Source of the DNA: Marsupella aquatica | Taxonomy: Eukaryota; Plantae; Marchantiophyta | DNA length: 64,000 nt | Direction: 5' to 3' | NCBI GenBank assembly: GCA_973895155.1 | Contig: OZ316892.1 | Span: 4,672,510 to 4,736,509 of the forward strand | In this document: in pieces, positions 5,632 to 34,574 of the stretch | Layout of the letters: every line of letters begins with the position of its first letter | How positions within the stretch are numbered: position 1 is the stretch's first letter | Program-made: the position numbers and the translations under genes | Notes under the pieces: generated by a model | What the model was told of the DNA's origin: nothing | Databases searched by the model: none | The model's input: only the letters and a program-made list of their open reading frames with translations

Positions 5632-8600
5632 ATGTCCCGACAAGAACACAGATATACGGCCCCAACTTTGTTGTACAGGGCACTTACAGGAGGAGACGGG
5701 AATGATGACGTTGGAAGAAACGATTTGCAGGACCTGGATGTTGATGGGATTGGTCAGACGCTTCCCATGCAGTATGGTATCCACATAATGCCTCGAAGAA
5801 TACTGACCGTGGACGAAGCAATTTATCGACAGACTTGGAGATTACAATCAATGCTTGACGAGGCTAAAATGCCTCAGGCATTGCAGGATAGCATTTTGAA
5901 AATGCTATTCAGGAAGATTCAGATTCCCCCATCTACAAATTTGACACCTTCACCCGACCCTCCATCCGACATGGCAAATGTAGGACTGGGCGCACTCCTA
6001 AGGCACGCTGGTGTGACGTGGGACGGAGGACGCCATGGAATTGATGCATTGTCATCATTCAAGGGTTTGTGTGGCACGTTTGAGGCATATGGTATGCCAA
6101 AAATGCAGCGGTGGAGAATGTGTATTGGACAGAAGCCAAACTGGCATGCTCCCGTAGTCCTACCGCCGTCGCACCAAGATGACTACAATGTCCGAATTGG
6201 ATTGAAGTGCAGTTGTTCAATCGCAGGGACAAAGTGGCATCTAGCCAGGGATTGTTTGCGTTGTTCGGAACGTTGCCCATTGGATGGTTGCAGCACGGCT
6301 CACAAGGAGATGCTCCGGTTTGAATATTTCCCCATTGGTCCCCTGTTGCGGAAGTTATGTAGCAGTCGATCTGTTTGTCATGAGTTCCAGGCAATGTGGA
6401 GGGACAAAGATAAGTGGTTTAAGAAGGATTCCATGCCCAGACCTGTGTACAAGGAATGGTGGGACGGCTACCGTGCTTCCGAGCTATCCTACTTTTGGGA
6501 CACTGGCACACAGTTTGAGATTCCCGTGTTATGCCGAAACTGTTATGCTTGCTATTCAACAACACCAAATAAATGTCCTGAGTTGTTGGATACTGCCAAC
6601 TGGGATAATGTCAGTAAACAATACAACTTCCAATGCTCAGATTGCGGATCTCGAGTCACGGCCCCGAAACAATTTGCAAAGGTTAGTGATTTCTTCTTGC
6701 GTTACTGTTGTTGCGCACTTTTGTATGACCAGGGTATGGTCTGGGTATTTTTAGGGTATTTATGGGTTATGATAGAGTAACTTTTGTCTAACTAGTGTGA
6801 CCCACCGCATGCAGGGTGATCCCCGAAATATTGCACTCATGGCACACTGGATGGATTTCAGTCTGCCAAGACTGCCCACAAAAGCACCTAGACTGTAGAG
6901 GTCCAAGTTTTAAGCGCCGGGTCTCAAACCAAAATTCCACCTATCCCTGTTCTTTTTATCCCGCCATGTGATGACAACGACATAGGAAAAAAAAAGCTGA
7001 AATGCTTGGATGCTTTCTTAGAACCATTCATAAGAGAACTGGAGGAGTTGTTTGTGGATGGGATAGAGGTGGATTACAATTACCCTGTGGAATTATTGGC
7101 TGAAGAGGATAATGTACCGAATGACTCCAGGTGTGTGCTACGAGCACTGTTAGCAGTTTTCACTGGAGATCATCCCGCACAATGTAAATTTGGGGGCTGG
7201 AATGTTACAGGTTATTCCGCTTGTAGGAATTGTAAAATGAGCACTCGATGGATGAAGTGCAAGTTTGATCATCCTCGAAAGGAGACTGACCAATCACAAC
7301 CCCGAGGTTTTCTGGGAAGGGTTGTGTATGACAACAATAGGATGCAGATGAGATATCCACCACCTACACGGAAAATTGAAGAGGTGAGGGAGGCGGCCAG
7401 GAACATGACCAGGGCAGGAACAACTGCAGAGAGGATGAAGATAAGCAGGGAGTGCGGGATTTCAAACATGACCAGGGCTTGGCGATTACATGAGCTTACT
7501 AGATTTTGTTTGAGCAAGGATCTGGTGTATGATACAATGCATATCCTTGCCTTGTGCCTTTTCAAGAAATACTGCGAGCTTCTAGTTTCGAGTGTTCCCC
7601 GTCAACATCAAAAACAGTTTGAAGATGCTCTGGAGGAGGTTACTGCTAGGAAACCGAGAGGTTTTGATGGAAGGTGGCCTAAACAACCTTTTGAAAGATT
7701 GGGATACTTCAAGGCTGAAGAGTTCACGCGATTCATATTGTATTGTTTGCCTTATATCCTCCAACAGATGGACATTAGTGTCCACTCTGACCTTGGGACG
7801 CTTGGGATTCTTTTGGTAGAGATTGCACGCCTCTTTTATATCAGAAGTAGACAAGAGGGTTGGACTACAGCCACATTGAAAAAAGGCAGGTCTCTACTGG
7901 CTTCTTGGAGAGTTCGCTCAGAAGAGGCTTGGGGCCCAAATGGAGCAATTCTAGAGCATGTTGCTGGTGAGTCATTTTTTTTACACTTGCTACATGACCA
8001 TGATGACAGTGGGTATTCATTGTTGGTCGATCCATCATTGCACTGAGGTGATGTTCTAATCCCAATGTGTTTTGATCCCAATTTTTAGGGAGCGGAGAGA
8101 TATTTGATGGGATAGAACGACATGGCCCACACTATGTTTATTGGTGCTACCACTTCGAGAGGATGGTATCAGACTATGGACGCACCAGAACAAATCAGAA
8201 GGACCAGGAAGTCACTTATTCTCTTCATTTTGCACGACGCTTTTTCACAAAAATATCGTCATACATTTGGGAAGATGACGATGGACTTTTCCCTCATCAG
8301 AGGGCTTTGGAGAAAGTATACTTGCGGAGCATCGTAAGGAGCACAGGTGCAGAGTCACTGTACCACCATCTGAATGCCCACACTAGCACGAGAATTCGGT
8401 GCCAATAGTTTCAAGTCAAATTCTAGCGATGGAATTGTGGGATAGTATGATATCCTCTGTGGAGTCATATGGTTGCAAGCACATGTTGTTGAGCAAAGGG
8501 GTTGGCATAGGCTCAAACAGGAAGCTGACAAAGAAACTGGGGCTGTCCGCCAGGATGTCATTGAAGCAGCATTGGACAGATGTTGGAGTATTCAACATCA

Positions 8601-9454
8601 GTGAGGACCACGAAATTAGTGAATCTTGCACTCCATTGCGATCAGCTGTGTGGAGAGCTGAAGTGTACAGGCCTGGCGATCACGTTGTTGTACTGGTAGA
8701 TGGGAGTACAGATGCTTCACATCCTCAAAACTGGAAAGCAGTACTCCAAAAGATTTTCATGCATGAATTCGATGGCCACATGGACATATTCTTTGAGGCG
8801 GATTGGTACAAACAACAGTATACACAGGATCCTCGGCGAAATTTACTGTCTTGGGAACGAGATGAGTATTCCCTATTTACTCTTTTGGAACCAAAAGTAT
8901 ATCATGCACATGGCAACAACTGTAGGCCTATGTCAAGAATTCTACACAAGTTCTTCCCAATTTGAAGAGGCGGGAGGGAGGTTGTAGCCTTGGAGATTGG
9001 AGATACTTTAGTACGGAAACTCCCTACCACAATTGCAAACTGCCCTCCTTTCCCAGAGGTAGGGGACATAATGATTGCAATAGCGGACTCACTTTCCATC
9101 CCTGACATGTGTGTTGTAAGGGAAGTCCTCCTTCCCAGGCGCGATGCGGCAACGGAAATGCAAGCGGGGGATGTAGGAGTGGTCGGTGCTTCTGACGGGG
9201 AGGAGGAGGAGGAGGAGGAGGAGGGAGGGGATGACATGGTAGAATCGCACAATGCAAATGATAATGAGAAGGACCTCGGGAAGGTTGGTGTGAGCTGGTT
9301 GTCTGTACAGGGTTCTCGGTCAAGTTGCCCAATCTACAAGGCAGCGTCACAAATTGATGAACACATCACCTTTCAAAGATTAGTTGCGTTGAGGCTTGAT
9401 TTTCGTGCAATTGGACTTCACCATGGTATCCCTGTACGGTGGAATACCGTATAG
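5632..9454 (+). pseudogene. Divergent CACTA/CMC (Transposase_21-like) transposase pseudogene with C-terminal BAH-like domain
   Basis: Motifs YFPIGPLL, GDPRNIALMAHW-DGF (1-bp frameshift near 6850), FLEPFIRELEEL, VFTGDHPAQ, ACRNC, YDTMHILAL, GYFKAEEF, HGPHYVYWCYHFER, then YRPGDHVVV...WKAVLQKIF...FEADWY (BAH-like). GT-AG introns ~6682-6813 and ~7967-8088. Stops or frameshifts near 6888, 8400 and 8963. Confidence 0.82.
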
Positions 9455-10203
9455 TAATACCATGGAAAGTCCCAAGTACGACAAAAAGGAAGATACTATG
9501 GGATATGACAACACTTGAGAGGCGCCGTTTTGTCAATAACTGAATACTGACCAGGATGCAGACCGTAGGATGTGTGAGATGCAGGTCAGACGTGAGCCTG
9601 TGATGGTGACGCTATGGTGCTTCGCACGGGGTATGATCGGGGACGGCACGGGTCACGAATATCATTGGATTCTGGGTCGGACGTGACATAATGGATGGGT
9701 ATTACCAGGTTACTTGGGAACGTGATAAAATGTACGTTGGGGTAGTGAAAGGGCGGTGCCACCGATCGGAGACAGAATCTTTGTTGTGAGATCTACTACT
9801 AAAACTGCAGTGACTAAATGATGCATGCCACTGCGCACATGAACGCCCTATGAGGAATTCCTTATAAGCTTTGGGCAATGGTGCGAGCTCCTGAGCTCCA
9901 GTCTTTGATTGTGTAGGTTTCGTAGATCTTTGTGGCTGACAAGTCTGCCATTGGATAACACTTGGGGTGTTAGCGACGGAAGCAAGTATCGACGAGCGCG
10001 GGGTGACGTTGGAGGATTGGTGAAAGTATGGTTCGTTGACATGATCGTCCAGCACCGGTTGCATTGTTGATGCAGAGCGACGAGGATATCACAGATCGTA
10101 TGTACCCCTCTTTCACTCAACTCCTTTGGTTCTTAATTCCGCATGAAGTATATTGATCGATTGTTAGAATGGCGCAACTAAGGCCTGCTTTGTTTGTACA
10201 GTC

Positions 10204-11332
10204 ATGACGGAGACGATTTGGAAGTCATGCTCGGGGAGGGTAATACGGCATTATCTAGGGATGGCCCCTGCAGACCATAATTTAGCTAGAAAAGCTGGTT
10301 TGGTTCCATGTTTTGAACTCGACTGGCCCAGAGTTGCAATTCCTGCTGTAAAGGAGTTCGCAGTAGGGTATGATCAAGGTCAAAACTGTGTGTCATTCCG
10401 GGGTGCAACTCACACATTCAACAGAGAGGTATTGCGAGCTGCATTTGCTTTTCCGTCTGGAGAATGGGCCCGATTTAAACCTGGGTTGGTCCAAGGTCAA
10501 CTAAATTCCATGTTTTCTGCCAAGATGAAAGGCAACCCATACAGTCTAGACAAAATCACTGCGCCATATATGCAGTGGTGTGGGATAATCAGGGCGATTT
10601 CTGAATTGCTCTCAAGCAAGAGCAAACCCACTCAAGTCACCTCAAAAGACATGTGGGTATACTGGGCGTATTGGTGGGATACGATTAGGGTACGTGATCG
10701 TTTTAGAGGAGCTGAAACTCCCGTGGTGAAGCCCGATTGGGCACATTTGGTGTACGATAATCTGACGAGTGAGATCCTCAGGTTAAAGTCACACCTATCG
10801 AAGAATGGTGTCGTAGACAAACGACTTCCTTGCTACTGTGGCACTGCTATAACGCAGATTCTTGTACACTACGGGTATTCGTTGGAGGAGCTTATGGTCG
10901 AACAACACGAAGATGATCATGAGGAGGACGACAAGGAGAAAGGGGACAATGGCTCACAAGAGGACGAGGAAGGGGAGGCTGGCTCAAAAGAGGACAAGGA
11001 CGGGGACAGTGGCTCACAGGAGGACGAGGAAGGGGATGACGGATCACGAGAGGACGAGGAAGGAGAAGATGGCTCACGAGAGGACGAGGAAGGGGATGGT
11101 GCGTCTGACGGTGAGGGGCAGCCATCGGAGGTTGCGCCCCAATTCTCCAGGGATGAACAGAAATGTCCTCAGGGTGAGCACAAATCGCCGCCCTCTGTGC
11201 CAGAGTGCATGCGTGTTCTATCACAGCACATACGTGCGCTAGAGGTTGATCTTGCAGAAAAATCGGAATGCTACGAGAAGCAGTGGAGAATCATAAAAAA
11301 TTGGTCCTCGATTTGATGAAAGAAAACGACAG
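10204..11332 (+). pseudogene. 5' part of the SNF2-RING helicase gene that resumes at 24422 (split by the 11333-24417 insertion)
   Basis: 370-aa ORF with an acidic tandem repeat. After a 1-bp frameshift near 11265 it reads AVENHKKLVLDLMKEND and, with the insertion removed, continues RQRVRILELERQVG in frame with ORF 24444. Confidence 0.75.
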
Positions 11333-11473
11333 ATCAACCTATTCATTAAAAGTGTATTTTCTTTTGTTCACAAATGAGTCTTGAAATGTACACTTTCATG
11401 TCCCCAAATGTACACTTCAAGACACCCAAATGTACACTTTTGTGTCTCTAAATGTACACTTTATAGGCCAAAT
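11333..11473. repeat. Left TIR (11333-11358) plus subterminal AAATGTACACTT repeats
   Basis: TIR is the reverse complement of 24392-24417; four AAATGTACACTT copies between ~11385 and 11462. Confidence 0.9.
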
Positions 11474-11714
11474 CACATTAATATTATATTAATAAATAAT
11501 ACATATTATATTATTTAATAACTCACATAGAAATGGAGGATAAAAATTTATAAAGTTATTTCATCCCCATTTAAGGACCAGATATTCTGTGAACAAAATA
11601 ATATCATTCCAAATAGATTATAAAATATCTTTATACAATTATCTGCAAATTTACATTGAATACGAACATGTTTCTAGTACTATCCAAGGGGCTTAACACA
11701 AGTCAATTAAATAT

Positions 11715-12930
11715 CTAAACCAAGTGCTCCCTACAATGTGTATTTGAGCATGTGCCCCTGTCTCCTTTCCTATCTACCCTATTGTCACGGTTGCAACTCA
11801 CTTTATTTTCAGGGAGTTGAAATCTGGTGGTGTTGTTCCTAATGGCTATAATCTCCCGCAAAAAGTGTCTGGGATTTTCTCTATATGGACCTGAATAATC
11901 CTTTCCTAAAAATGATTTAGCAAGTGAGTTGACAAGTGCATTGTCAAGTTCCACCTCAGGACGTAAACTACATATACGGTGCTTTACATTCCAAGGGATC
12001 TCATTACTGTTGAGGTCCAACACACTATGTGTAAACTGTGACTTCCAAATTTTTGCTGCAAATCTCTTGCTAAGTTGATCATAAGTAATCTCATTTTTTG
12101 CCTTGTCTCTCTTCATGTGCAAAAGAGACCACTTTGGAGAGTTGAGAAGAAGATAGCATCGAATGTCACTTGCATGTGATAGTTTCTCAAGACATGGCCA
12201 AAGAATTGCTAGAAGAAAATTATCTCCACGATTGGCATGCGTGTAGGGCACTGGAAATAATCCGGTCATGTCTGGGTTGGCAAATGCCTTAAGGGGGGAG
12301 TCATCCACAAGGAGGGTGTTGGTTTCATCATATAGATTTCCAAATGCATTCCATACCACCTGAAAATCCTTCAGTAGCACATTTGCCTTTCCGTTTGTAA
12401 TGTCACGCCTTTGAATGCCTGTGTCAAAGGCTTCCACCTGTGTGAATACAAACTTAAGTTTCAACCGCTCCTCAACAGTGAACATCATGTTCAGCATTTT
12501 CACTGTTCGTTCTACCCCAGCACAAGTCCAAATTGCAACGTCAAATCTGTCAAAAACCAACTTTAGAAACTCATGGAGCCCTGGTCGTTCTGTATACATG
12601 CGACTAATACCATTTTTTCTATCCCAATGCACTCCACTTGAGGTGACAATATTCCTGGATGTGCCCTTGTTTTGGAATTCAATAGAATCCCAAAGTATTT
12701 TATTAAGGTCCAAAATCAGCAACTTCCGCTTGACGGGACCAGGTCTCGATTCTGCAAGTGCACCAAACACCATTCTCAGAGAAAAGACCAAAAGTGAACT
12801 TTGGATTAGGATTGTCTCAGTCCAAAAATACAACACAATGGCTGACAAAAACGAAAATTAACCTACATACCGTTTTTAGAAGCCTCACAATGTGTAGACG
12901 GATATGGAGACTTTAATTGGTGAGCCCATT
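11715..12930 (-). CDS. FCP1/NIF-family HAD phosphatase-like domain (probably terminal exons of the 18151-start gene)
   Basis: KLLILDLNKILWD (DxN variant of HAD motif I), RPGLHEFL...FDVAIWT, NTLLVDDSPLKAFANP. A 60-bp exon 12930-12871 (GTATGT donor) splices in phase to 12751-11715 and has no ATG of its own in frame. Confidence 0.8.
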
Positions 12931-12990
12931 CTGTGAGACCGAGAAGTATTTTAGATTGATATGAATAAATAGAAAGTCAAAGGCTGAATT

Positions 12991-15900
12991 TCATTCCAAA
13001 ATAAGAGATCCGTATTCATCAATAATCATGTCAGCACCAAGCTCCTGTTGGATTTCAAAATTGACATCTGAAGTACTTTGTTCTACCCAATAAGGAGAAG
13101 TCCAAACAGGAGTTATGAACCCCAATTCTCCCCTCTTATACTCCTCCTTATTGAGAATTGAAGGAGCAGCTTCCAATGATATTTCTTGGCCTCGATTTGG
13201 CCCACTTTTCCACACGTAACATCGTGCGTCGCGTTCCAATGACCTCCATCCAGTTGATCCAACTCTATTCCCTTTCTTTTTTGAGAACGGAAGGACAACA
13301 GGACTCCTCGAGTGTGAACGAACAAACACCAATTTGTCATCAGAAGCTGAAAAGAGTGTGTCAGGACAAGTTGAAGCACCTGCCTGGTTGTCAACAGCCG
13401 TTGATGCATTTCCTCCTGGATTGATGGGAATGTCAGGCAATCCGCCGGCTTCCCCACGAGTCAATTCGTTAGTTTCAGCTTCATTTGAATCTCCAAGCCT
13501 CGTTGCGCCTTCGTTGATCAGATTGGTTGAAGAAAGATGATCAAACATATCAACCCTTGCTCCTTCCAGTTGCTCCATCTGTCCTCCCGGCGTTGTTGGA
13601 TTGGGATCATCCTTGTCCAAGTTATCATCAACTTGAACTTCATGGGGCCCCGGAGGGATGTCATCTAAACCAGATGAACGGTTTGGTGCAAGTCCAATAT
13701 CATCATCTACATCGTAAGGCTCACCTTGACCAACACGGTCATCCAAATTTTTGACATATGCCTCGTCTGATGCCTCTACGCCTTTAGCCACTTTGTCAGC
13801 AACATCTTCAGACTCAGAACCGTCGGATTCAACAGCGACAGCTACAGCCGCAATAGTGGTAGCCCATTGTCGAGAATTTTCAGCAAGTGATTCACAATGG
13901 GCTTTAAGTGAGGGAACTCTCTCGCAAAGGTAGGAAGCAAAAGCTTCCACAAAATGCCTCTCGGACTGAGAGTCACAATAAACAAAGCATTCCCTATCGC
14001 AAAAAAATGATGTCTTCATGACTTGGCCACCGGAGAAAAAATCTAGAACCAAATCTCCCGGTTCTGATAAGGATTCAATAATCCTTCGGATCATCCGCGT
14101 GGGTTTGGCATGAGGATTAACCCATCCTCCGCGACTACCAACTGTCTCAAATCGAGGGGCCATATTCATAATCTTGACGGCCTCTTCCGGGTCCAAAACC
14201 ACTTTTAGGTCGTCGTTTTGTGTCCCCTCATCTGATTCCTTAGCTTTCCCCTTTCCCTTGTCGATCTTGCATACTTCATAATCAACATCCTTTGAAGTAT
14301 ACAAGAATTTTGGCTTTGGATAGTTGGGCTTGAAAACTTCATTCCAATTGACGTCTTCATCTCGAGAAATCCCTGCAAAGATAACTTCTTCAATCCCTCC
14401 ACCCCAACATGAGTCATGAGGGTGCGGTTGATCATCTCGTGAATAACTCCCATACTCAATGTGAATGGTCAAAGCTTTCTCTTGTCCCAATTTACGAAGG
14501 GCACCATGGACATTCAGTGCAAGTTGTCCAGGATGAACTGTTATCGTCACCACAATCGTGGGATTTTGTGGAAGCTCCACAATGTATTCAAAGAGAACAA
14601 GAATCTCTGCTTCAGTCCACTGTTTTTGTGGAAGCCGGCTAAAATCAACAATGGCAAGAGGGCAGGTCGGAGGAGCTTCTTGCAATGACTCTGGATCAAT
14701 GGTCTTCATGAGATTGTCGCTAAAAAATGTAACCCATGGTAGGGTCCGAGAACGTGATCCTCCGCCAAATCTCTGGCAGTATATATCATCTAGGCGGAAT
14801 ACCAATGCCGTCGGCAAGATTGCGCTCTCCCGCGTATGATTTGGCTTTAAAAGGTTGGCAAGATAGACCTCGCCAGCGGCTCTTCGACACCTGCTGAACT
14901 CTGAATCAATTGCTAGCGTAGGAAGAACTTCAACTACTTTCCCCCAATTAGTATTTGTCGGGAAATTCACCGCATCCTTGGTGCAATAGTAGTCTTCAAT
15001 AAGGGACTTGAGTTTCCGCACGATCTTCACATCTTTGGCCAACTCCTCTATAGATGGCATGTCTGATTTATTAGAGGCATCTTTCTTTAGCAATACCTTT
15101 CCTGACTTCACCCGCGTCAGTATTCTTGTGATGTCTCGTTGTGAGATCAACTCACCATCAAAACAACGAAACATGGCAACAGTAATTGCTTTTTCAGACT
15201 TCTCATTTCCTTCTACACCAGCTCCATCGGGAAGTTTCCCATCCAACCACAATTGGCATACCAAACTCCATAAATCAAAAAGAGCATTGTCGGCAAACAG
15301 TAACCAGTAGACATTACGACAATCTTTCCTTCCCATGGTCATTCTTGCAAGAGCCAACCAATCCTACAATTGCAAAGGAAAGTCTGTTAGTTCTCCATAA
15401 CTCAATTGTTTGAAAGCACTCAGGTGCGGACTGAGACCATCCCAGTCCAACACAGAAGTAGACAGTATCAGTGGAAATATTATATTGAATGTGCATGATT
15501 TAGTTTGGACTAGGACCATCCCAATCCAAAACAAAACTAGACGGTATCAGTGGAGAAATATTCTACTGAATGTGCATGAATCCATTTGGACTGGGACCAT
15601 CCCAGTCCAACACAAAACTAGACAATATCAGTGGAAATAGTCTATTGAATGTGCATGAATCCATTTGGACTGGGACCATCCCAGTCCAACACAAAACTAG
15701 ACGATATCAGTGGAAATATTCTACTGAATGTGAATGTATCCATTTGGACTCGGACCATCTCAATCCAAGGCAAACTTGAAGCTTTGTGGTCAAAGACTAC
15801 CATCTCAATTGTAATCACACATGGAGAGTCTACGGTATTGTGCCAATCAAGCAGTAACACTTCATACCTGAAATTTTTGATTGTCTTGAGCGTTTGTTTT

Positions 15901-18151
15901 GTTGTCCCCATGTTTTGGCCGGCTAGGTTTTCCACATTCCACAAATTGCCGCCTAGCATGAACGACTGTATCTTTGAAGCATGACTGAAACACCATCGTG
16001 CTATTGATAGCATTAGATCGCATTGAATGCTCAACTAATATTGATGATGGTGTTCGATGAGATAATATTCTTGACTTTCGAAATTCCAGCTTTTTTGCCA
16101 ATGCTGTTAGCTTGGCATCCTTGTTTGCCCATTCTCGAATCCATCTGGCTGCTCTGGCTGAATGTTGACCGCTAATGGCAAGGAATTGAACCTCCCCCTT
16201 TTTCACGGCTGCTACAAAGTCCCTCCTATCTGATTCCGTGTTGTCATATTGCATTAGGTTTCTATGTTTTGTAGTGTAAGGAATCAAGTCTGCTATGTGT
16301 GGTTCATGCCCCGGATTTCTTATCATGGAATTGGCCACCTCCTTTACATGGTCTGCATTCAACATTCTGTAACAGAGTCTTGCCGACGCAGGGAAAATAC
16401 TCTCTACGGGAATAGAAAATATCGAATTGATCCCAAACGTATAATATTGCTCCATTTGTTGTAGTACCTCATTACCTTCTAAGACCTTCTTCTCCTCAGG
16501 AGCGTCCAACTGCTCGTCCATATCTTGTGAATGCACTATCAGGTTTTCTGTAGTGTCATCCATGATGACACTGTCAATTTTCTGTTTCTTCTTTTGTCTT
16601 GGCCTCTTTTCACTTGCACTTGGCTTCTCAACCGGACGTTTCTTCTCAACTGGCTTCTCAACTTGGCTTCTCGTACTCGGCTTCTCAACTAGCTTCTGAA
16701 CTCGGCTTCTCGTACTCGGCTTCTCAACCAGCTTCTCAACTGGAAGTTTCTTTTCAACCGGAGGTTTCCTTTGGCTTTGTTTTTGTTTTCCCACTGCTCT
16801 TTGAGAGGTTGCTGCTGTAGTTCCCGCGGTCTCTGTTGTAGGTTCTGGAGCTTTCTCTGGCGCCTTCTCGGGCACAGGGTTTGTATTCACCGTTGGAAGG
16901 TTTCTCGTCTTTGACAAAGATTCTATCCATTGCTTTGCTTTGACTAAATCAAAGTTGGGATCAAATGCAACATCCTTATCAATTAAAACACCAGGCTCCT
17001 CTGACTCCAACGATAACAATCCAACTTTCTCAAGTAAATTGCTTAACGTCCAAGTAGTTGCAAAAGAGAAATTGCCTTGGTGCTTCATCATGTTGAGTTT
17101 CAAATATTGAAACCCATACATAATGTCTACTGGAAGCATACCAGTTACCCCGATGACCAACTTCTTTGTGTCATATGTCTTTGGAAAAAATCCCATTGAC
17201 AAAACGCTCAATTCACCACTTGCGTGCCATTCGACATTGAATTCTGAGGAGTATGCCTTTGACATAAGGTTAACTTTAACCCAGCATGACCTATCGTGCA
17301 TCTCCAGAATGACCGAATTCATCCCTCTCCCTCCAATGCCAACAGAGACCACAGGTCCGCAAACCAAAGTCAGGCTATCATTTGCTCTGCACTTTAAGGT
17401 CAAAACAGGTTCAATCGTGCTTGATGGCACTTCATTATTAAGCGGGGTTCTTGAGAACTCAAGCCCCCATCGGAAGCCTGGGGATCTCTCATCTAGTAAG
17501 AATCCGTCCCGGCAGTCGGTCGGTGCAATCGCGGGTTTGAAACCAACAAGATCGCTCCCTGCATCATAAAAACATCATCCATGTTAGACTTATTAAGTTT
17601 AAAACATTTGAATAACTCTTGTTGGATTAGGATGGTCCTAGTCCAACTTGAGATGGTTTTAGTCTTGCTCCTACAATCGAGATTCAATCTCCTGGATGGA
17701 TTAGGATCATCCGAGTCCAAGTTTGGATTGGGATCATCCGAGTCCACGTTTGAATTAGGATCATCTGAGTCCAAGTTCGGATTGGGATGGTCCGAGTCCA
17801 ACTTTGGATTGGGATCATCCGAGTCCAACTTTGGACTGGGATCATCCGAGTCCAACTTTGGATTGGGATCATCCGAGTCCATGTTTGGATTAGGATCATC
17901 TGAGTCCAAGTTCGGATTGGGATGGTCCGAGTCCAAGTTTGGATTGGGATCATCCGAGTCCAACTTTGGACTCGGATGGTCCCAGTCCTCTAAGACTTAG
18001 GGAGGATAGGTGATGGATACTTACTAGGGATTCTTGATTGAAATTGTTTGGAGTCTTCAAGTGCCAGTTCTACACTGTCGCTCATAGAGGAGAGGTCAAA
18101 CTCCTCTGTTGCTTCCACGGAGGACTTCACAAGGACGCGATTCGCTTCCAT
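12991..18151 (-). CDS. Transposon cargo protein: ParB/Srx-like domain plus DNA N6-adenine/N4-cytosine methyltransferase-like domain
   Basis: Predicted exons 18151-18025, 17558-15868 and 15363-12991, all GT-AG, phase-compatible and stop-free (~1396 aa). ParB-like: IPVESI...RMLNADHVKEVANSM...FLAISGQHS. MTase-like: NPHAKPTRMIRRIIESLSEPGDLVLDFFSGG (14119-14024), resembling HPTQKP...GDLVLDPFxGSG of beta-class amino-MTases. The DPPY-type motif is degenerate. Confidence 0.78.
15428..15770. repeat. ~78-bp tandem repeat inside intron 2 of the ParB-MTase gene
   Basis: 4-5 copies of TTTGGACTGGGACCATCCCAGTCCAACACAAAACTAGAC...ATCAGTGGAAATA...GAATGTGCATGAA; the core is the reverse complement of the 27-bp unit at 17690 and 19210. 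Confidence 0.9.
17690..17990. repeat. 27-bp tandem repeat inside intron 1 of the ParB-MTase gene
   Basis: About 10 copies of TTGGATTGGGATCATCCGAGTCCAAGT / TTGGATTGGGATGGTCCGAGTCCAACT. Confidence 0.95.
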
Positions 18152-18660
18152 CTTTCTGACACGTGGCAGAGTGACACGTGGCTTCTTAGCAGGCGTCCGA
18201 TTTAGGGCAATGAAAAAGAATGGAGGTGGAGGCGGAAGGCAGAGGCGGGGAGGCGGAGAGAGAGCGGAGAGCAAAGAGCGAGGAGAGCGAGCGAGTGAAG
18301 GCAAAGAGCAGAGAGCGGAGGCGGAGAGTGGAGAGCGTGAGCAGAGTGAGGAGCGAAAGAGTGAGAATGAGAATGAGGTCCTGGCTGGACCTCTCCGTCC
18401 CTTTACCCCCTCCTGCCTCACCCCGGCCTGCGTACGGCCGGTTGCCTCCTTCTCCTACGTACGGCCTGATAGTGCGTACGGCTTGCTCCTGCGTACGGCC
18501 CGTTGCCCGCACCCTACATACGGGCCTCCTTCCTTGATGTCCTGCCTACCTAACAGCCTTGCACGGTAGTCCCCGCGCAATTAGGCTCGTGAAGATAAGG
18601 TGTGCCGCAAGCTAAGGTGAAGGGGTACTCAACCCTTATCTTCACGCGATTTCCGTTTGA
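18152..18660. promoter_or_regulatory. Putative bidirectional promoter region between the cargo gene and the transposase
   Basis: GC-rich stretch between divergent genes, with a GA-rich tract, repeated CGTACGG motifs (18430-18525) and a 13-bp inverted repeat CGTGAAGATAAGG/CCTTATCTTCACG (18588-18600, 18634-18646). Function inferred from position. Confidence 0.45.
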
Positions 18661-19209
18661 GCCGACTCGAGCAAAGGGTATATTTCGGGAGACGCCCACT
18701 TCGGAGCTCATTCTTGTTCTAGTTTCCCAAATCTAAGCTCCATGTAATCCGGAGTTTCTCTTAAAGTGTTATGTATTGAGCCACTTACCTTCAATGGGTC
18801 AGCTTAGCCAGCTTCTTGACTTTTGGGGTCCTCTCAGTTTATCTTTTACAGACATGTGTGGTTTAGGGTTCAGTTTGTTTTTTACTCCCAAGATTTAGTG
18901 GCATATAGCTTGTATTTCAGGGTTCTGGGAAAGTTTTTACCAATCTACAGACAACAATGTATCCCCCTTGGATGTGATATTCATATTCTACCAGATCTTA
19001 ATACTAAGGTGAGTATAAGGTTAACACATTCAAATATAAGGCTAGGTTTCATTATTTCATGAAACTGTATGTAGACATTAGGGTCTACCTTAAGACCACG
19101 CAAACTTTAGGCTACACCATATAGGGAGATCCGTAAAATACGGAGTCTTCCTAAATTTGGAATTTTCTTAGCTTAAAATGTTTGAAGTTTATCTCCCGTT
19201 ACATTATGG

Positions 19210-19980
19210 GTTGGTCTAGGATGGTCCTAGTCCAAGTTTGGATTCAGATGTGGACTAGGATCATCCGAGTCCAACTTTGCATTGGGATCATCCGAGTCCA
19301 ACTTTGGATTGGGATGGTCCGAGTCCAAGTTTAAACTTGGATGGTCCAAGTCCTAGTTTGGATTGGGATGGTCCGAGTCCAAGTTTGGACTTGGATGGTC
19401 CAAGTCCTAGTTTGGATTGGGATGGTCCGAGTCCAAGTTTGGATTAGGATGGTTCAAGTCCAACTTTGGATTGGGATGGTCCGAGTCCAAGTTTGGACTT
19501 GGATGGTCCAAGTCCTAGTTTGGATTGGGATGGTCCGAGTCCAACTTTGGATTAGGATGGTCCGAGTCCAACTTTGGATTGGGATGGTCCGAGTCCAAGT
19601 TTGGACTTGGATGGTCCGAGTCCAAGTTTGGATTGGGATGGTCCGAGTCCAAGTTTGGATTGGGATGGTCCCAGTCCAAATCCAGAATCGGAGGATCGTA
19701 CTCCAAATCTAGACTCGGAGGATTCCAGTCCAAATCCGGACTCGGATGGTCCCAATCCAAATCCATAATCGGAGGATCGTAGTCCAAATCTAGACTCAGA
19801 GGATTGCAGTCCAAATCCGGACTTGGATGGTCCCGGTCAAAATCCGGACTCGGATGGTCCTAGTCCAAATCCAGAATCAGAGGATCGTAGTCCAAATCCG
19901 GACTTGGATGGTCCCGGTCCAAATCCGGAATTGAAGGATCGTAGTCCAAATCCAGACTTTGAGGATCGCAGTCTGAATCA
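19210..19980. repeat. Tandem array of the same 27-bp family (21/27-bp variants) upstream of the transposase, probably in a 5' UTR intron
   Basis: Many copies of TTGGATTGGGATGGTCCGAGTCCAAGT grading into GGAGGATCGTAGTCCAAATCCGGAC variants; splice acceptor TTTTCAGTGTGCAG ending at 20025. Confidence 0.93.
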
Positions 19981-20040
19981 AAATTTGCATGACTTTGGTT
20001 GTAATCCATTTTTTTCAGTGTGCAGGATAATAGGAAAAGG

Positions 20041-23000
20041 ATGTCTCAAAGGTTTTCTAGGGGCGATGATGTGACCTTGACAATGGATGGTTACGACGTT
20101 GGAAATGGGACAGTTCAAAAGACAGATCCGCAAGAGAGTGTTCAAAATATTGTGCTGGGAGAGAATCGAATTGGGGTTCTCATTGAGAAGGCCTTTGGTG
20201 AGACCAGGAAGCTCCCTTTTCCAATGCCTAGGGCGGAAAATCTTCATGATGCCATTGACTCATGTGTCATTTGGGATATGTCATGTGCATATCGATCTGC
20301 GGATAAGATTACTCAAAAACGCATCAGTATTGGTAGTTGTTCGACTCGAAAAGATAACAACATCCATAATTCTGCAAATGTACAGGAGGATGCTTCGACC
20401 ACCCTAAGGCCAGGTGATGAGGTTGAAATGTTTATCTCTGGCCATTGTGTGGCCTTTGGAGTTGTTTTCAACACTGATCCAATGGAGAGATGTCATAACA
20501 TATTACTCGGTGAGTCTCGGGTTAGTGTAAAAATCACAGATGTGATTCATGGTAGTAAGACTTTACCTTACGCACATGGTGGAGCTGCAACAATTGAAGA
20601 GGCAAAGGGCTCCTGGGTTCTATGGGATGTGGCTGACGTCCACAATAAAGTATGGAATGTTGATATCGATGGGAGCAACAAATCTTCCTCTAAGAAGCAG
20701 AAGGACAAGGCGGATTTTGTTTCACAGTCTTGTTCGGCAAACACCACAGACACTAAGTGTGACTATTTTCATCGGGCAAACTGGATGTCAGAGTTGGTTG
20801 AACTCTACACTGGTTTGGATCGAACCAAAATGGTTGCCACGGGAACGATCACTGTCCCTCAAGTGATGGCGGCAGTTGATGATGAAATTCTTGGTGATGA
20901 CCATGTTGGGATTGCTGTGAAAGATGTCGTGGCAGCACAATACTTTCCCAACATCCACAAGGGAGTAGTGAGTTTGATTCGATGGCGGATTGATTCAACA
21001 AAACTAGTTGCAAATGGAAAATTTTTGTCAGATATTTTGGTGGAAGGTTCTGAAAGGATGGACTCAATGGATAGGGATGAACTCAATGCGGATGTAAGTG
21101 ATAGAGGAGTACTGCGTTCAAGGCCCTACAATTTTAACAAGAGGAATCAAGTAGATCCAAATGAAAAGAAGAGGAGGTTGTTGGAAACCAAGGCAATTTC
21201 AAAAACAACAGAGGCGTCAATTGATGACGTGAAAAGAGAAAATTGTTGCAAGCAAAAATGTTGTCTCATTATGCCAAGGGAAAACATCGAAGATATTAGG
21301 ATGGAATTTCATGGGATGTCAAGCGAGTCAAAAACGTCACACATTTTCAACCTCTTTCACTATAGAGAGGATGATGTTCGTGATAAGGGACACCATGTTC
21401 TTAAGGGTATGGTCGTATGCAGACATGCATTTGCAATTATCCACGGTTTTAGCCACACCAAATATTATGATTACAAAAGGAGATATGTGGAGGGTTGCAA
21501 AATTGGGTTCCATGGCAATACGGGCTTGATGAAAACAAGGGCAAATACCTTGCATGCACGAGCTCTGTTGGAGGCTTTTTTGACTCGAAATGCAGAGCCC
21601 ATGCCTCATATGCCTTATGGAGGGGCACATGGGACAGACTCTATTGAGTACCGTCTTCCGGCGTGTTACAAAAAGCTAGAGATTCTGGAAGATGTGAGAA
21701 CAAAGATGAAGGAAGAAGGGCTTCCTCCTGTCACAGAGAATACTCTCTACAAGATCTGGAGTAACTCATTTGCAAACTTCAGTTTTCATAAAGATGGTGC
21801 ATTTGCCAAGTGTACTCTTTGTTGTGAATACAAAGACAGTTTGATGCGAGAAAGAAGGAAAAAAGAACGTGCTGAAATTGAAGAAAAACGAGCGCAACAT
21901 CTTCGTGAGCAAATGTCACGTAGATATGTTTACTACGCTCATCGAGTGATGGCCAAACAACACCCAGGAGAATATCTTTGCATTATTCACGACAAGATGG
22001 ATCAAGCAAAGACATGGATTCCAAAAATGGTTAGTACTCCTAAATCTCTTTCGGGTCATGGAATGCCGCTACCTATTGCTCTCACAGGGATGTTGACCCA
22101 CGGGAGGGATCCAGGAGTTTATGCACACTTTAGTGTCACTGGCCTTTGGCCAGGAGATGCCGATTTCACGGTGACATCCTTGGCTAAGTGTCTTCGAGAC
22201 CTTGAAGAGTACAATGGAGACAAGACAGGTGACATGTTGGATGGCCTTCATTGGGAACCTCATAGACCTTTCTTTCAAGCCCTACTTGACTTTGAAGCAT
22301 TTTTGACGGGTTATTTGGAACCAAAGAATATACCGGTGAATAGGTATATTGGTTCTGAAGATGGAGCTGAGAGTCGGACTGAGACCGTCCCAAACCAGCA
22401 AGATGAGGATGATGGAGAAGACATGCAAGGAGAGCAAGGCAGTCCATCGTTCAAGCCCTTGCCAAGGCACCTAACATTGCAGATGGATAATTCAGCAAAG
22501 GACAACAAAAACCAGACTGTCATGGCATTTTGTAGCGAGCTTGTGAGTAGAGGAGTATTTGAAACTGTTCAAATGTCTTTTCTAATGGTTGGTCATACGC
22601 ATGAAGATGTTGATGCACTCTTTTCAAAGGTATCATATCAAGTTCAGCACAAAGAAGTTGCAACCCTCCTTGCTCTTATGGCAGAGGTATGGGAATGCGA
22701 GAGCATTCATCCAGTTCCCAGATTGATACAAGAAGTTGCATCTTACAAAGAATATCTTCAAACTTTCAAGGTGAAAGATATTCAAGGTCACTCAAAACCT
22801 GTATCATTTCTTTTCTCTATGAGAGATAATGTACCAATATTTCAGTATAAGTCCCATGTAAAGCAAGCTTGGGCTCCACTTGGTGGAAGGTGCATTTGGG
22901 CAACAGATCTGACAACAAATTCTCTTCTTTTACCAAGTGGAGAGCCCTTAGCTAAATCCATTGGAGAGATACACAAAAAATCTGAAGAGATTATCCCATT

Positions 23001-23802
23001 TCTTAACAAGTACCTTGATTTTTTGAGAAGGAGTTGCACTGATGAGACATCTATAGCATATAAGGAAAGATTTCCTCTTGTGAAATATTGGGAGAGAATT
23101 GTGGAGTTGTTGACAAATGGGCTCGCACTAGAAGGGGAGGGAAGTACTCAATTTCCCTTGGAAAACAGATTTTGGCCTAAGACTAACCACGGCACTGGTT
23201 ACAAGGTCAACCAACCGGAACAAAGTGGTCCTCCAAGTGAAGATGAGGAGAATGCAGAGATGACGGCTCTTCAAAATGAGGTCTTGGAAGAGATGGAAGA
23301 TCAGGCAGCACCATTTGTTGGATCTCGAGCTGAGAGAGAACAAGGACGATGGATTCCTTTACAAGATATTTGTGAAGGAAACTTTGTATTTCTTCGACCC
23401 GAGGATGACTGGGAGAATAAAAATGGTGGAGGTCATTTCTGGTTGGTGAGAGCTTTGGGTTTGGTGGACCCAAAGCATGAAGTCCCAACTACATCTTCAA
23501 CAAACCCTTCTCTGCCTCGACAGTACGCTCCAATGTTCCCAGTTGAATGGTGGAGGCCTAAACACTCTAGTAAACTTGATGTGACTGAGAGTGCGCGGTA
23601 TCTAAATTGTTTCATGTCCACTAAGACATGGGAACGAGATCCAGGGTTTGGTGAGAATACTCAACATTGGCAGTATGCAAATTCTGCAATGTATGGTTTT
23701 AAATCTGGAATGAAAGAAGAAAACATGGCAGGCAGAGGTTTGAAGATCCCTCGAAATGTTCTACAAACTGTCCAAAATTATCTTCAAAGGATGGACAAGT
23801 AG
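20041..23802 (+). CDS. Intact Sola/DUF7869-type DDD transposase with three N-terminal repeated domains
   Basis: Uninterrupted ~1253-aa ORF. CCKQKCC, VCRHAF, CTLC..H, IIHDKMDQ, LQMDNSAKDNKN and VGHTHEDVDALFS match the motifs of the pseudogene at 1493-4953. N-terminal repeats (G.V..DP....LGE...V......LP......A....V.W) resemble the En/Spm TnpA-type (DUF8039-like) domain. Confidence 0.92.
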   Translation: MSQRFSRGDDVTLTMDGYDVGNGTVQKTDPQESVQNIVLGENRIGVLIEKAFGETRKLPFPMPRAENLHDAIDSCVIWDMSCAYRSADKITQKRISIGSCSTRKDNNIHNSANVQEDASTTLRPGDEVEMFISGHCVAFGVVFNTDPMERCHNILLGESRVSVKITDVIHGSKTLPYAHGGAATIEEAKGSWVLWDVADVHNKVWNVDIDGSNKSSSKKQKDKADFVSQSCSANTTDTKCDYFHRANWMSELVELYTGLDRTKMVATGTITVPQVMAAVDDEILGDDHVGIAVKDVVAAQYFPNIHKGVVSLIRWRIDSTKLVANGKFLSDILVEGSERMDSMDRDELNADVSDRGVLRSRPYNFNKRNQVDPNEKKRRLLETKAISKTTEASIDDVKRENCCKQKCCLIMPRENIEDIRMEFHGMSSESKTSHIFNLFHYREDDVRDKGHHVLKGMVVCRHAFAIIHGFSHTKYYDYKRRYVEGCKIGFHGNTGLMKTRANTLHARALLEAFLTRNAEPMPHMPYGGAHGTDSIEYRLPACYKKLEILEDVRTKMKEEGLPPVTENTLYKIWSNSFANFSFHKDGAFAKCTLCCEYKDSLMRERRKKERAEIEEKRAQHLREQMSRRYVYYAHRVMAKQHPGEYLCIIHDKMDQAKTWIPKMVSTPKSLSGHGMPLPIALTGMLTHGRDPGVYAHFSVTGLWPGDADFTVTSLAKCLRDLEEYNGDKTGDMLDGLHWEPHRPFFQALLDFEAFLTGYLEPKNIPVNRYIGSEDGAESRTETVPNQQDEDDGEDMQGEQGSPSFKPLPRHLTLQMDNSAKDNKNQTVMAFCSELVSRGVFETVQMSFLMVGHTHEDVDALFSKVSYQVQHKEVATLLALMAEVWECESIHPVPRLIQEVASYKEYLQTFKVKDIQGHSKPVSFLFSMRDNVPIFQYKSHVKQAWAPLGGRCIWATDLTTNSLLLPSGEPLAKSIGEIHKKSEEIIPFLNKYLDFLRRSCTDETSIAYKERFPLVKYWERIVELLTNGLALEGEGSTQFPLENRFWPKTNHGTGYKVNQPEQSGPPSEDEENAEMTALQNEVLEEMEDQAAPFVGSRAEREQGRWIPLQDICEGNFVFLRPEDDWENKNGGGHFWLVRALGLVDPKHEVPTTSSTNPSLPRQYAPMFPVEWWRPKHSSKLDVTESARYLNCFMSTKTWERDPGFGENTQHWQYANSAMYGFKSGMKEENMAGRGLKIPRNVLQTVQNYLQRMDK

Positions 23803-24054
23803 ACTTAGTTGTTAGAAGCTATAATAATTAAATAGATAGTTACTAGTTTTTATGTAACTAAGATAGTCACTCATTCAAACATAGTAATTTATGTACTAGT
23901 TATTTACTATTCTAATAGTTTTAATGTGATACTATCTCCTCATTTTCTAAACTTTTGATCATTATAAATATGAATGTTTGCTTTTTCTACATAATTAAAA
24001 ATGTTTTTCTATTCATTCCTTTCTTTTAAATGATTATAATAAGAGTTGGTAGGC

Positions 24055-24417
24055 AAATGTACACTTTTTAGGCCAAATGTACACTTTATTGCACTAAAAG
24101 TTACACTTTCTAGACCAAATGCACTTAAATGTACACTTGTTAAGCCAAATGTATGCATTTTGCACTCAAATGTACACTTTCTAGGCCAAATGTACTCAAA
24201 TGTACACTTTTAAAGCCAAATGTATCTATTTTGATGTTCAAATTTACACTTTTCATTGCCCAAATGTACACTCTTTAGGCCAATTGTAAACTTTTCTATC
24301 CCCAAATGTACACTTTTCATTGGCCAAATGTACACTTTTCCAAGCCCAAAAGTACACTTTTCACTGCCCAAATGTACATAAATCAAATAATAATACACTT
24401 TTAATGAATAGGCTGAT
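24055..24417. repeat. Right subterminal CCAAATGTACACTTT array and right TIR (24392-24417)
   Basis: More than 10 copies of (CC)AAATGTACACTTT with ~21-bp spacing, ending in the TIR. Confidence 0.92.
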
Positions 24418-24421
24418 ACAG

Positions 24422-27400
24422 ACAGAGAGTCCGCATATTAGAATTGGAAAGGCAGGTTGGGTTGCATTCAGAACAAGTTGGCAGTGAGACATCGAGTGGA
24501 GAAGGTGAGAGCGGAGGTGATGAGAGATGTTGTGAGGTTCTGGTAGGTCTTGGTGCCAGGGTACATGCAGGTTATGATGCAAAGGCATCACAGCGTAGCC
24601 CAATTTCAGAGTTACCGCCAGTTTCTGGTGTTCCAGCTATAGTAGAGGTACCAGCAGCAGCACCAGCAGAAGCAGGTACTTTCCCAATTTATTATCCTGG
24701 TGTTCCCGCTATAGTAGAGGTACCAGTAGTAGCACCAGCAGAAGTAGGTACTTTCCCAATTCATTATCCTACTTCAAAGATACAGCGAGAGGAGTCTATG
24801 TCGAGTGGATGTGACTCACCAGTTTTGGTAGAGTTACAGGCAGCCGCACCACCAGTACTGGCAGAGGTACCGGCATCAGAAGAAGAGATGTCACTTTTAG
24901 AAGGAGAGGCACCAAATGTTGCACCAACATCAAAAGTAGAGGTCTTAGCTACAGAGGAGGACAAATCGTTGGGTGCAATTGCATCAGAAGTACCAGGGTC
25001 ACCTCCGATTTCTGTTCTATTTCATGTTCCAACTAAGAGTCCGGGATGGGAGGCTAGGACGAGTCACATTTCACGACAACCAAATTTGCCTCGTGCTTCA
25101 AAGAGAGGGCAAGAGGACTCTATTCCGAGTGGCAGTCACTCACTAGCGAAGAGGAGGGCTATCGAAGTGGAGGAAGAGGAAGAGGTAGAGGAAGAAGAAG
25201 AAGAAGATGAAGTGGAGGATGGCGAGCATTCAGAACAAGACATTCACTGGGAAGAGTGTGCCACAGAGAGTGGAAAGGTTAGCGATTTTTTTCCTTTGTT
25301 GTGTGATTACTGTTTTTCCAGAAACAATGTTCAAGCATATCTAACTTGGCTGTGAGCGGGATCCGCAGATTGATATCCAAGGGTCTCACTTGACAGAGGA
25401 GGCATGCCCTCCACCTGGTACAATGACTATAGCTCTATATCCACACCAACGGATTGGTCTTGCATGGATGTTGGAACGCGAATCCGGAAAAAGCTCTCCA
25501 ATTGGTGGGATGTTGGCGGATGACCAGGTACAAAAGCCCCCAAATTAAGCCGAAGTCGCACTCATTATTTTCATTCAGCGGGATACTTTGGGGGTATTTT
25601 TGGAGTATGTTAGGGGTACGCGCGCACCTTGTCTGCAAGTGAGTGGGTCCCTGACCGTTTTCTTGGCTTGGATTTTTTTAGGGAATGGGGAAAACCATGC
25701 ATGTCAGAGCGCTATTTCTCGTGAATCGCCCTCATAAGTGTGGGCCAACTCTAGTTGTTTGTCCAGCCAGCGTGGTGATTCAATGGGGCCAAGAAATAGC
25801 TGCAAGGACCTCCAAGATAGCAAAAGTGAAGGTCCTCCTCTACCACAACAAGAGGAATAAAGACATCAACTTTATTTCAAGCCATGACGTGGTTGTCACT
25901 ACGTACTCAATCATGACAGGGGAGTCTCCCATTGCTCCAAAGACGTCCAGCGTGCCAAAAGGGAGTATGAAGAGACCTGTAAAAAAACCTAGACTTGCAG
26001 GTCCACTATTTAAGATTAGTTGGCTTAGAGTAGTCCTGGATGAGTGTCATGTCATGAAAAATAAAACTAGTCAAAATTTCAAGGCCTCGCGTTGTCTCAA
26101 GGCAGAGAGGAGGTGGTGCCTAAGCGGTACACCCATATAGAACGAGGCTTCTGATCTGTTTCCTTACTTCAGTTTTCTGAGGTATTATCCTCTAGGAGAG
26201 TGGAAGGAATTCTCGTAGTTAAAGAAGCTGCTGAAGACAAGGCCAAAGATAGCGAATGGCATCCTCTCGAAACACTTGGTTGCGATTGCGCTCAGGAGAG
26301 ACAAAAGTAAGCGTGCATGCATATATCATGGTAGAGTTCACTTTGTTTAATCCCAAGCCTGATTTCTTTATCAATTGTGCATTTACCCTGCCACTGTGCT
26401 TACATGCAGGCATACTCCCACTGCCCCCTAAGACGATCGAGGTGCAAATTGTTGAATGGAGAACACAGCAAGAACGAAACGCTTATTTTGATCAGGAGGA
26501 AAAGAGTAAGGAGTTATACAAGGTACGTAAGGCTCTTAATAATCCCCAATGTTGAAGACATATGAGAGTTCAATTTGATCCCTTGAAGGTGTCTGTTCGG
26601 TGGCAATTAATGTGCCTGTAATGTTGTAGGAATTCCGTGACGCCGAAAGAGGTGCCTTATCGAATGTGTTGAGCGTTCTGCTCCGGTTGCGACAATTTGC
26701 AGTGCACCCGAAACTTCCTTCCTTATGTAAAATTCGCGAAGAGGAGATCGGGAACAAAGTGCAAAGAACGCCCCTTAGTGAGCCTCAACGAGCCCGACTC
26801 GTGTCAGAGTTTCAGCAATTGAAGATTGGAAGTGCTTGCGTGGACTGCAAGGTGAGTACAGTCACTCTGTGTATGGGGTATGATTGGGGTATTATTGGGG
26901 TATGATTGAGGTATTTCAATTAACGTGCTTTGCCTAACAATTTCTGCACGCACTCACTTTAACGGTTGGATTGTGCAGGGGGGCTTGATTGGAAGTCCAT
27001 TTCAGATTTCTGGCTGTGGCCATGTATACTGTGGCATTTGTGCAATAGACCGGGAAGCTGGAACCTGCAAATCGGCAAAATGTTCAAAATACGTGACAGC
27101 CCAGGTCCTATACAGGCCAGCTGATTTGAGGCTAGTGAATGGTGGTGTGGAGTCAAAAGGGAAGGCGCAAAGAGAATATGATGTCCGACACCCACCTTCT
27201 CCAAAATTTGATGCAGTCTTGGAATACCTGAAGTCGATTCCGCTGGACACTACAAGACAGGGCAGCAGCGAAAGCTTTGTGCCCAGGCAGAAGGCTCTTG
27301 TTTTCTCACAATGGACTTCGTGTCTCGACATGCTTGAGCCACACATTCTGAAGGCTGGTCTAAAGTTCACAAGGATTGATGGAGGAATGAATTCCAATGT

Positions 27401-34532: not shown

Positions 34533-34535
<3 letters not shown>

Positions 34536-34569
<34 letters not shown>
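34536..34569. repeat. (AT)17 microsatellite
   Basis: Directly visible; only a few AT units at the matching position of the other arm (~44320). Confidence 0.95.

Positions 34570-34574
<5 letters not shown>

Follow-up and report, generated by a model that had tools for sequence, protein, structure and literature searches.

Sola elements are DNA transposons that encode a DDD-type transposase, generate 4-bp target site duplications (TSDs) and carry terminal inverted repeats (TIRs) of 11-1124 bp, and according to the available text of two sources they are known from moss (PMC10741241; PMC4455052). A giant member, Sola1-1_Ec32 of the alga Ectocarpus, is described in the accessible part of its report as a Sola1 element of 21.5 kb that has AACCG termini, imperfect TIRs of 282 bp and a TSD of 4 bp, whose transposase has its best match in Physcomitrella Sola1 and whose opposite strand encodes a 1104-aa protein with ParB-like and N4-cytosine/N6-adenine (N4C/N6A) methyltransferase domains (PMC12477816). 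The same part refers to similar proteins in green algae as well as red algae, and it was proposed there in 2025 that such ParB-methylase accessory genes serve self-modification. An accessory gene of another kind is carried by VANDAL transposons of Arabidopsis, whose VANC protein targets tandem repeats within vanB and vanC introns as well as upstream of the vanA gene (PMC5735166, available text). Here we describe a 64,000-nucleotide stretch of the liverwort Marsupella aquatica (GenBank assembly GCA_973895155.1, contig OZ316892.1, positions 4,672,510 to 4,736,509 of the forward strand; hereafter the window), in which an intact Sola-like transposon carries a transposase gene and a divergent accessory gene for a ParB-like/methyltransferase-fold protein (Table 1).

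Compared with the published description of Sola1-1_Ec32, the Marsupella transposon is likewise a giant Sola element, has a TSD of 4 bp and carries on the opposite strand a gene containing an N4C/N6A-methyltransferase domain, whereas its length of 13.1 kb, its 26-bp TIRs, its ATCA termini and its land-plant host are different. It has an additional NIF-like open reading frame (ORF) and palindrome arrays in introns, and its own methylase motifs are lost. Its TSD and TIR lengths fit the Sola superfamily as published, most members of which are 2-9 kb long. Because the Ectocarpus layout has been published, the two-gene architecture belongs to a known and recently named kind, and the preliminary description of this DNA, which had presented it as an undescribed system, needs correction on this point. 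What is new is a land-plant copy that is both intact and polymorphic, together with a liverwort protein family whose catalytic motifs are eroded, palindrome arrays within introns and an NIF partner, so that a layout previously reported mostly from algae now extends to a land plant. No liverwort description of such an element type was found in a literature search, which was incomplete and had missed the Ectocarpus paper. By analogy with VANC, the accessory protein is tentatively read as a non-catalytic, sequence-specific, self-binding protein with an anti-silencing role.

Table 1. Coordinates of the element, its genes and repeats, and related features (window positions)
Feature	Position	Strand	Remarks
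Sola-like transposon, whole element	11333-24417		13.1 kb; intact
Left TSD	11329-11332		ACAG; single copy kept at the empty-site joint
Left TIR	11333-11358	+	26 bp, starts ATCA; 25/26 identity to right TIR
Left subterminal repeats	11384-11462	+	22-bp period, core AAATGTACACTT, 4 copies
NIF/FCP1-like HAD ORF	11715-12773	-	352 aa from Met, separate frame; Pfam NIF
Accessory gene, exon 3	12991-15363	-	Helical region, methyltransferase fold, acidic linker, ~110-aa C-terminal domain, stop
Accessory gene, intron 2	15364-15867	-	Phase 0; 5 palindrome copies in 79-bp repeat
Accessory gene, exon 2	15868-17558	-	N-terminal domain of unassigned fold, Lys-rich linker, ParB-like domain
Accessory gene, predicted intron 1	17559-18024	-	12 palindrome copies, 27-bp tandem array; splice sites from sequence
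Accessory gene, predicted exon 1	18025-18151	-	ATG at 18151; in frame with exons 2 and 3
Intergenic region of the two divergent genes	18152-19008		G+C-richer; presumed bidirectional promoter
Array upstream of transposase ORF	19212-19948	+	24 palindrome copies, 27-bp tandem array
Transposase	20041-23802	+	1253 aa from Met, DUF7869, no stop
Right subterminal repeats	24054-24378	+	12 copies of core AAATGTACACTT
Right TIR	24392-24417	-	26 bp; 25/26 identity to left TIR
Right TSD	24418-24421		ACAG
Miniature inverted-repeat transposable element (MITE)	54817-55159		343 bp; same TIRs and core AAATGTACACTT; TSD CTAA; no palindromes
Degenerate CACTA-like host element	5611-26140 (limits approximate)	+	Insertion in its second ORF
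Host-element ORFs	10168-11316 and 24417-25355

The element is almost certainly real and mobile. Beyond the nearly identical 26-bp core, the TIR pair matches at 88% across 34 nt in an inverted-repeat comparison, and both ends are bordered by the same 4-bp TSD. The subterminal repeats, whose 12-bp core was counted at ≤2 mismatches, are likely transposase-binding sites. Since a MITE with the same TIRs is flanked by a different 4-bp TSD, the termini and the TSD length are fixed independently. The transposase matches DUF7869 with 148 bits against a cut-off of 26 (E 2.9e-43); proteins of this kind with the motifs HDKMD, QMDN and GHTHEDVD are presumably Sola transposases, and D654, D816 and D858 within these motifs are taken, by comparison with Sola motifs, as the candidate catalytic triad. 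It also contains Cys/His clusters at residues 402-408, 460-464 and 591-597, and would bind the 22-bp subterminal repeats, cut at the TIRs and leave the 4-bp TSD. The TIRs, TSD, subterminal repeats and uninterrupted ~1253-aa transposase of the preliminary description were thus all recovered. No solved structural relative of the transposase was found, and the available text of two supplements of PMC3985635 gave no Sola1/2/3 label. Another DUF7869 gene, a distant one scoring 165 bits, is located at 1490-4953; three stretches of it are 22-29% identical to the main transposase. In-frame stops interrupt it at 2408-2410 and 3838-3840, it has an apparent intron close to 3070-3205, and element ends were not found for it.

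Recent movement was examined in four (X1, X2, X4 and X5) of the six public sequencing runs that cover part of this DNA. The joint 11328->24418, in which the element and one TSD are gone, is present in X1, X2 and X4 and not in X5; in X1, one 2302-nt contig (depth 198) spans this exact empty site with 14 differing letters and one gap. The same run contains a cargo contig (14441-15252; 4 differences in 812 nt, depth 431) and a transposase contig (20403-21393; 3 differences in 991 nt, depth 455), both at about twice the depth of the empty-site contig. As these two are near-identical to the element and agree in depth, copies of both genes should exist elsewhere, with the reservations that transposase and cargo are not on any single contig and that the depth of a contig does not give the number of copies. 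One X4 contig, with ~14% divergence, connects the left subterminal repeats' region with the NIF ORF end. Another reservation comes from a second, diverged empty version in X2 and X4, which implies that the host element has paralogs and that an empty joint need not be a strictly orthologous allele. An AAAAA variant of the empty site was considered as an excision footprint and rejected, because its length equals that of the empty allele and a diverged host paralog explains it better. Taken together, the element is likely a recently mobile and autonomous cut-and-paste transposon of the Sola/DUF7869 type, which agrees with the earlier proposal of a recently active element with a linked module and internal repeats. 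That these features arose by chance is contradicted by the MITE with its own TSD and by the empty joint in three of the four runs.

The accessory gene is, as had been claimed, a divergent multi-exon gene: its three exons, the first of which is predicted, are joined at putative GT-AG introns and encode 1396 aa without an internal stop. The second exon junction is supported by relatives, since the same intron position is found in L001 and the junction is read through by the natural proteins P0001, P0116 and P0119. The accessory family comprised 108 representatives at E ≤0.001, a few of the weakest of which (e.g., P0101 and P0111) are ordinary methylases. Thirteen of the 20 relatives looked up could be named, and all 13 come from two liverworts, Calypogeia fissa and Riccia sorocarpa. 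In R. sorocarpa, relatives are encoded by ten dispersed loci on four large contigs (P0044, P0076, P0084, P0086, P0090, P0096, P0097, P0108, P0110 and P0126), a transposon-like scatter. The N-terminal domain (17571-16900, minus strand) is conserved and common to five relatives, and the C-terminal domain (12994-13383, minus strand; ~110-130 aa), which has no Pfam name and is beta-rich in the structure model (predicted local distance difference test, pLDDT, ~70-80), was found in 11 relatives and was unmatched in the Riccia proteins examined. The cargo aligned in none of 45 candidate stretches from viral contigs, none of 113 from bacterial genomes and one of 225 from metagenomes, the latter on a 1.8-kb contig too short to show neighbours. 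The transposase was found in none of six candidates from viral contigs, a TIR motif search gave no matches, and a search for relatives among longer proteins returned none in 5325 candidates, which is weak evidence.

These data also bear on whether the cargo could be simply carried along or have nested there by chance, playing no part in the life of the element, which is very unlikely. In favour of this, the catalytic motifs are lost, the Calypogeia and Riccia relatives may be unlinked to a transposase, and the variants in exon 3 are mostly non-synonymous in a small sample. On the other side, reading frames are open across 4.2 kb and 1.06 kb, no internal TIR or TSD surrounds the cargo among the repeats listed, and depth is raised over the whole element. 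In addition, intron position and domain order are conserved among relatives at 25-45% identity, the same palindrome occurs in the cargo introns and before the transposase, and the same layout is described in Ectocarpus (PMC12477816, available text). The cargo was previously said to carry no disabling mutation, which is correct for the reading frames and not for the catalytic motifs, which are altered.

One of the domains so altered is the methyltransferase-fold domain, which occupies residues ~212-479 of the exon-3 ORF and belongs to the beta class of amino-methyltransferases. Its structure model (mean pLDDT 48.8) has its best match in CcrM (Foldseek E 7.5e-6), and superposition on CcrM (Z 14.1, root-mean-square deviation 3.2, 188 residues aligned) indicates the permuted beta-class fold. 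CcrM, M.RsrI, M.PvuII, bdelloid N4CMT and Marchantia DN4MT1 have this fold and motif order in common with the accessory domain, whereas the element's protein lacks DPPY/SPPY, has a shorter glycine loop, is fused to a ParB-like domain and is borne by a transposon. The motif IV position reads DFSR, and (D/N/S)PP(Y/F/W) occurs in none of 34 aligned family rows and in none of 66 proteins searched end to end. Since the global profile alignment to five intact methylases was reliable around motif I only, the equation of DFSR with motif IV rests on strand position in the model and on the whole-domain superposition. Motif I (FxGxG) reads DFFSG-G compared with DFFAGSG in M.RsrI; the glycine loop is one residue shorter, the gap occurs in 40 of 41 family rows and FxGxG itself is absent, although S-adenosylmethionine (SAM) may still be bound. 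In bdelloid N4CMT, a change of SPPY to APPA abolishes activity, according to the available text (PMC8885841). The domain is therefore probably not a normal methylase, and the working DNA-modifying module claimed earlier is not supported, given the family-wide absence of motif IV.

The second domain of the accessory protein (~16488-15868, minus strand, in exon 2) is likely ParB-like, judging from sequence comparison. When it is aligned to a profile built from 86 ParB N-terminal domains, the two conserved boxes fall in register and GQHS faces GERR; the domain itself reads ISGQHS at this place, family variants are G(Q/A)HS or RQHS, and the H-S pair is invariant in 11 of 11 rows. The arginine patch of the ParB CTPase (GxxRxxA; GERR in the ParB comparison set) is accordingly missing. 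A homolog gave a DndB match at E 0.031. The domain had no Pfam ParB match, no match among sequences of the PDB and no phage match, P1 ParB alone did not align, a plasmid match was found at E 4 without a Pfam family, and the structure model (pLDDT 43.8) had no structural match. Its closest named Atlas family was DUF3723 (score 0.95, a feature similarity without alignment), and the Pfam profile of DUF3723 had no match in the accessory protein. DUF3723 is described in part of the literature as a conserved auxiliary gene, of unassigned function, of giant Starship transposons. Both are thus accessory genes of large mobile elements, whereas Starships are fungal tyrosine-recombinase elements, unlike the Sola-like element, and the likeness is one of features.

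The third enzyme-like component is the NIF ORF, which matches Pfam NIF with 57.4 bits against a cut-off of 21.8 and has UBLCP1 as its nearest solved relative (E 1.2e-9). Phosphatases of the FCP/SCP type carry the signature DxDx(T/V), at the place of which this ORF has DLNKI (within LLILDLNKIL). A single gene including the phosphatase had been claimed, which is not confirmed: exon 3 stops at 12991, the NIF ORF is in a separate frame, and it is best treated as a separate gene because the closest accessory homologs also end where exon 3 stops. In contrast, Riccia P0096 contains methylase-like and NIF parts in one predicted protein, the C-terminal end of P0097 is the start of the NIF motif, and a strong donor at 13724 is predicted to be able to join an acceptor at 12843 in frame to give a methylase-like/NIF fusion. 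By these sequence comparisons the association appears to be old; the NIF ORF may be either a separate gene or an alternative last exon. The same observations could be accommodated if the accessory protein were a decoy, or an inactive partner like METTL14, and bound, inhibited or redirected either a chromatin factor or an amino-methyltransferase of the host, with the NIF-like protein as a substrate trap. Inactive methylase domains are described for DIRS1 retrotransposons and METTL14 (PMC4738411, available text), signature residues are missing from all three enzyme-like domains, and the predicted Riccia protein joins two of them. However, a decoy alone would not explain the palindrome arrays, and such a role is considered quite unlikely.

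These arrays consist of 27-bp and 79-bp repeats that share a 23-bp palindrome, TGGAYTNGGA-N3-TCCNARTCCA, in which, on average, 7.75 of the 10 positions of the arms are complementary. At ≤4 mismatches the window contains 44 sites, all inside the element, and 0 in the other 51 kb, the MITE included. Three dense non-coding tandem arrays hold 41 of the 44 (12 in intron 1, 5 in intron 2 and 24 upstream of the transposase), and the remaining three are single copies. The array upstream of the transposase is likely inside a predicted intron of the 5'-untranslated region, with its donor at ~19009 and its acceptor at ~20018 or 20025. This placement resembles that in VANDAL elements, where an accessory gene is likewise carried by a DNA transposon and an element-specific motif is amplified as tandem repeats in introns and upstream of the transposase gene; as published, VANDAL elements differ in belonging to the Mutator superfamily, in the unrelated protein and in having 9-bp motifs in one orientation instead of a 23-bp palindrome, and the anti-silencing function has been shown for VANC and is proposed by analogy here.

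The MITE has moved although it contains no palindromes, so excision probably does not require them; a regulatory role is what is left, and the accessory protein is suggested as their reader, a palindrome also being suited to a dimer. Moreover, a family that kept the fold and lost the catalytic motif points to binding rather than marking. The accessory protein may therefore be imagined to dimerise via its ParB-like domain and read the palindromes, whereas the methylase fold would be a scaffold for binding DNA or SAM and would shield the bidirectional promoter or open it in a VANC-like manner, keeping the two divergent genes expressed without methylating DNA. The NIF-like protein, which has likewise lost its catalytic signature, might be a phosphoprotein-binding partner. 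A more elaborate version, which is rather unlikely, is that liverwort Sola transposons possess a second and independently evolved sequence-specific anti-silencing system of land plants, assembled from disarmed enzymes (ParB clamp, dead methylase and dead C-terminal-domain (CTD) phosphatase): a ParB-derived clamp would load on parS-like intronic palindromes, the dead methylase would grip or shield DNA, and the CTD-phosphatase domain, spliced on or separate, would hold RNA polymerase II at the promoter.

The palindromes are also relevant to a role as a transposition helper, in which the accessory protein would bind palindromes or transposase and pair ends or pick targets; in a variant, the palindromes might be read by the transposase itself. 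Second proteins of CACTA and Harbinger elements act as such helpers, ParB-type proteins bridge DNA, and in a 2026 preprint transposases themselves reportedly activate cognate copies. The likeness to the Starship auxiliary family DUF3723, as far as it is described, has been counted in the same direction; being a feature similarity without alignment, it carries less weight. As the MITE moved without any palindrome and the arrays flank promoters and not ends, a helper role is possible but unlikely.

Several observations weigh against a purely binding, anti-silencing protein. The first Asp of motif IV, located at the end of the motif-IV strand, is retained by 31 of the 34 rows, and conservation of the SAM-side motif is high, a combination that could represent an unusual active site. 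An active N4C/N6A methyltransferase that marks its own element through such an atypical site would fit the complete beta-class fold suggested by the model and the conservation of the NPxxKP and DFFSGG segments in the family. Liverworts also use a bacterial-type N4-methylcytosine (4mC) enzyme, and atypical strand-4 motifs occur in some eukaryotic methylase clades, according to the available text of these sources (bioRxiv 2021.02.12.428880; PMC4738411). Nevertheless, PP(Y/F/W) is missing from every row and protein searched, the glycine loop is one residue short, and the Marchantia enzyme DN4MT1 is described as retaining TSPPY (bioRxiv 2021.02.12.428880, in part), so that an active methylase is quite improbable. 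Self-methylation is unlikely because motif IV is absent, motif I is short, and the ParB-like and phosphatase motifs are altered. Further points on the adverse side are that ParB profile scores barely exceed the shuffled maxima (22.4 vs 21.9 in 30 shuffles; 12.5 vs 11.0 in 40), so that the ParB domain of the preliminary description holds with weak support, and that the element itself was the source of the palindrome pattern; the occurrence of sites within it is thus partly a matter of construction, whereas their lack in the remaining 51 kb is not. The parallel to VANC is one of layout, no link between the sequences having been found. Finally, variants in exon 3 comprise 10 non-synonymous and 4 synonymous changes compared with 3 and 8 in the transposase, in a small and biased sample (29 classified coding sites of 40 listed) in which most exon-3 sites are located in the variable linker; as far as it goes, this sample tends to speak against strong constraint on exon 3. 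On balance, of the self-marking or anti-silencing function suggested before, the self-marking enzyme is not supported and anti-silencing by a binding protein stays the best guess.

If the VANC-like reading is true, sequence-specific anti-silencing would have originated in plants a second time, and the element might provide a small tool for targeted gene activation. The locus supplies test material: a copy that is intact and polymorphic, a related MITE, and a clear candidate target of 23 bp that is restricted to the element; liverworts also include a transformable model.

The element had inserted into another transposon. A Transposase_21 match at 6892-8046 (E 1.3e-7, Pfam profiles) identifies the host as a degenerate CACTA-like element, so the insertion is nested. 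According to the preliminary description, removal restores the frame of an interrupted gene; this is true of the local frame, which is joined, and not of the gene, since the long upstream ORF is in a different frame and ends 16 bases ahead of the insertion. A reading of the interrupted ORF as a cellular gene was rejected; the ORF belongs to the CACTA-like element and is frameshifted upstream of the insertion. A spliced CACTA/Tnp2-like transposase gene of the host element, with in-frame stops, occupies 5611-9454, and a RING plus Helicase_C fragment (SNF2/RAD5-like) adjoins the host element on the right (26910-27509).

Elsewhere in the window, a long interrupted inverted repeat is formed by 32900-36300 and 42600-45100, with arms 86-98% complementary and blocks of up to 514 nt. 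An ORF at 46162-47202 contains two homeodomain-like matches (Homeobox_KN, 2.9e-10), and adjoining ORFs at 57167-59318 encode PHD-like fingers and a BRCT domain, perhaps representing a chromatin gene or other transposon cargo. Another CACTA transposase (60328-63186; Transposase_21, 198 bits, and DUF4218) is split by an in-frame stop at 62236-62238.

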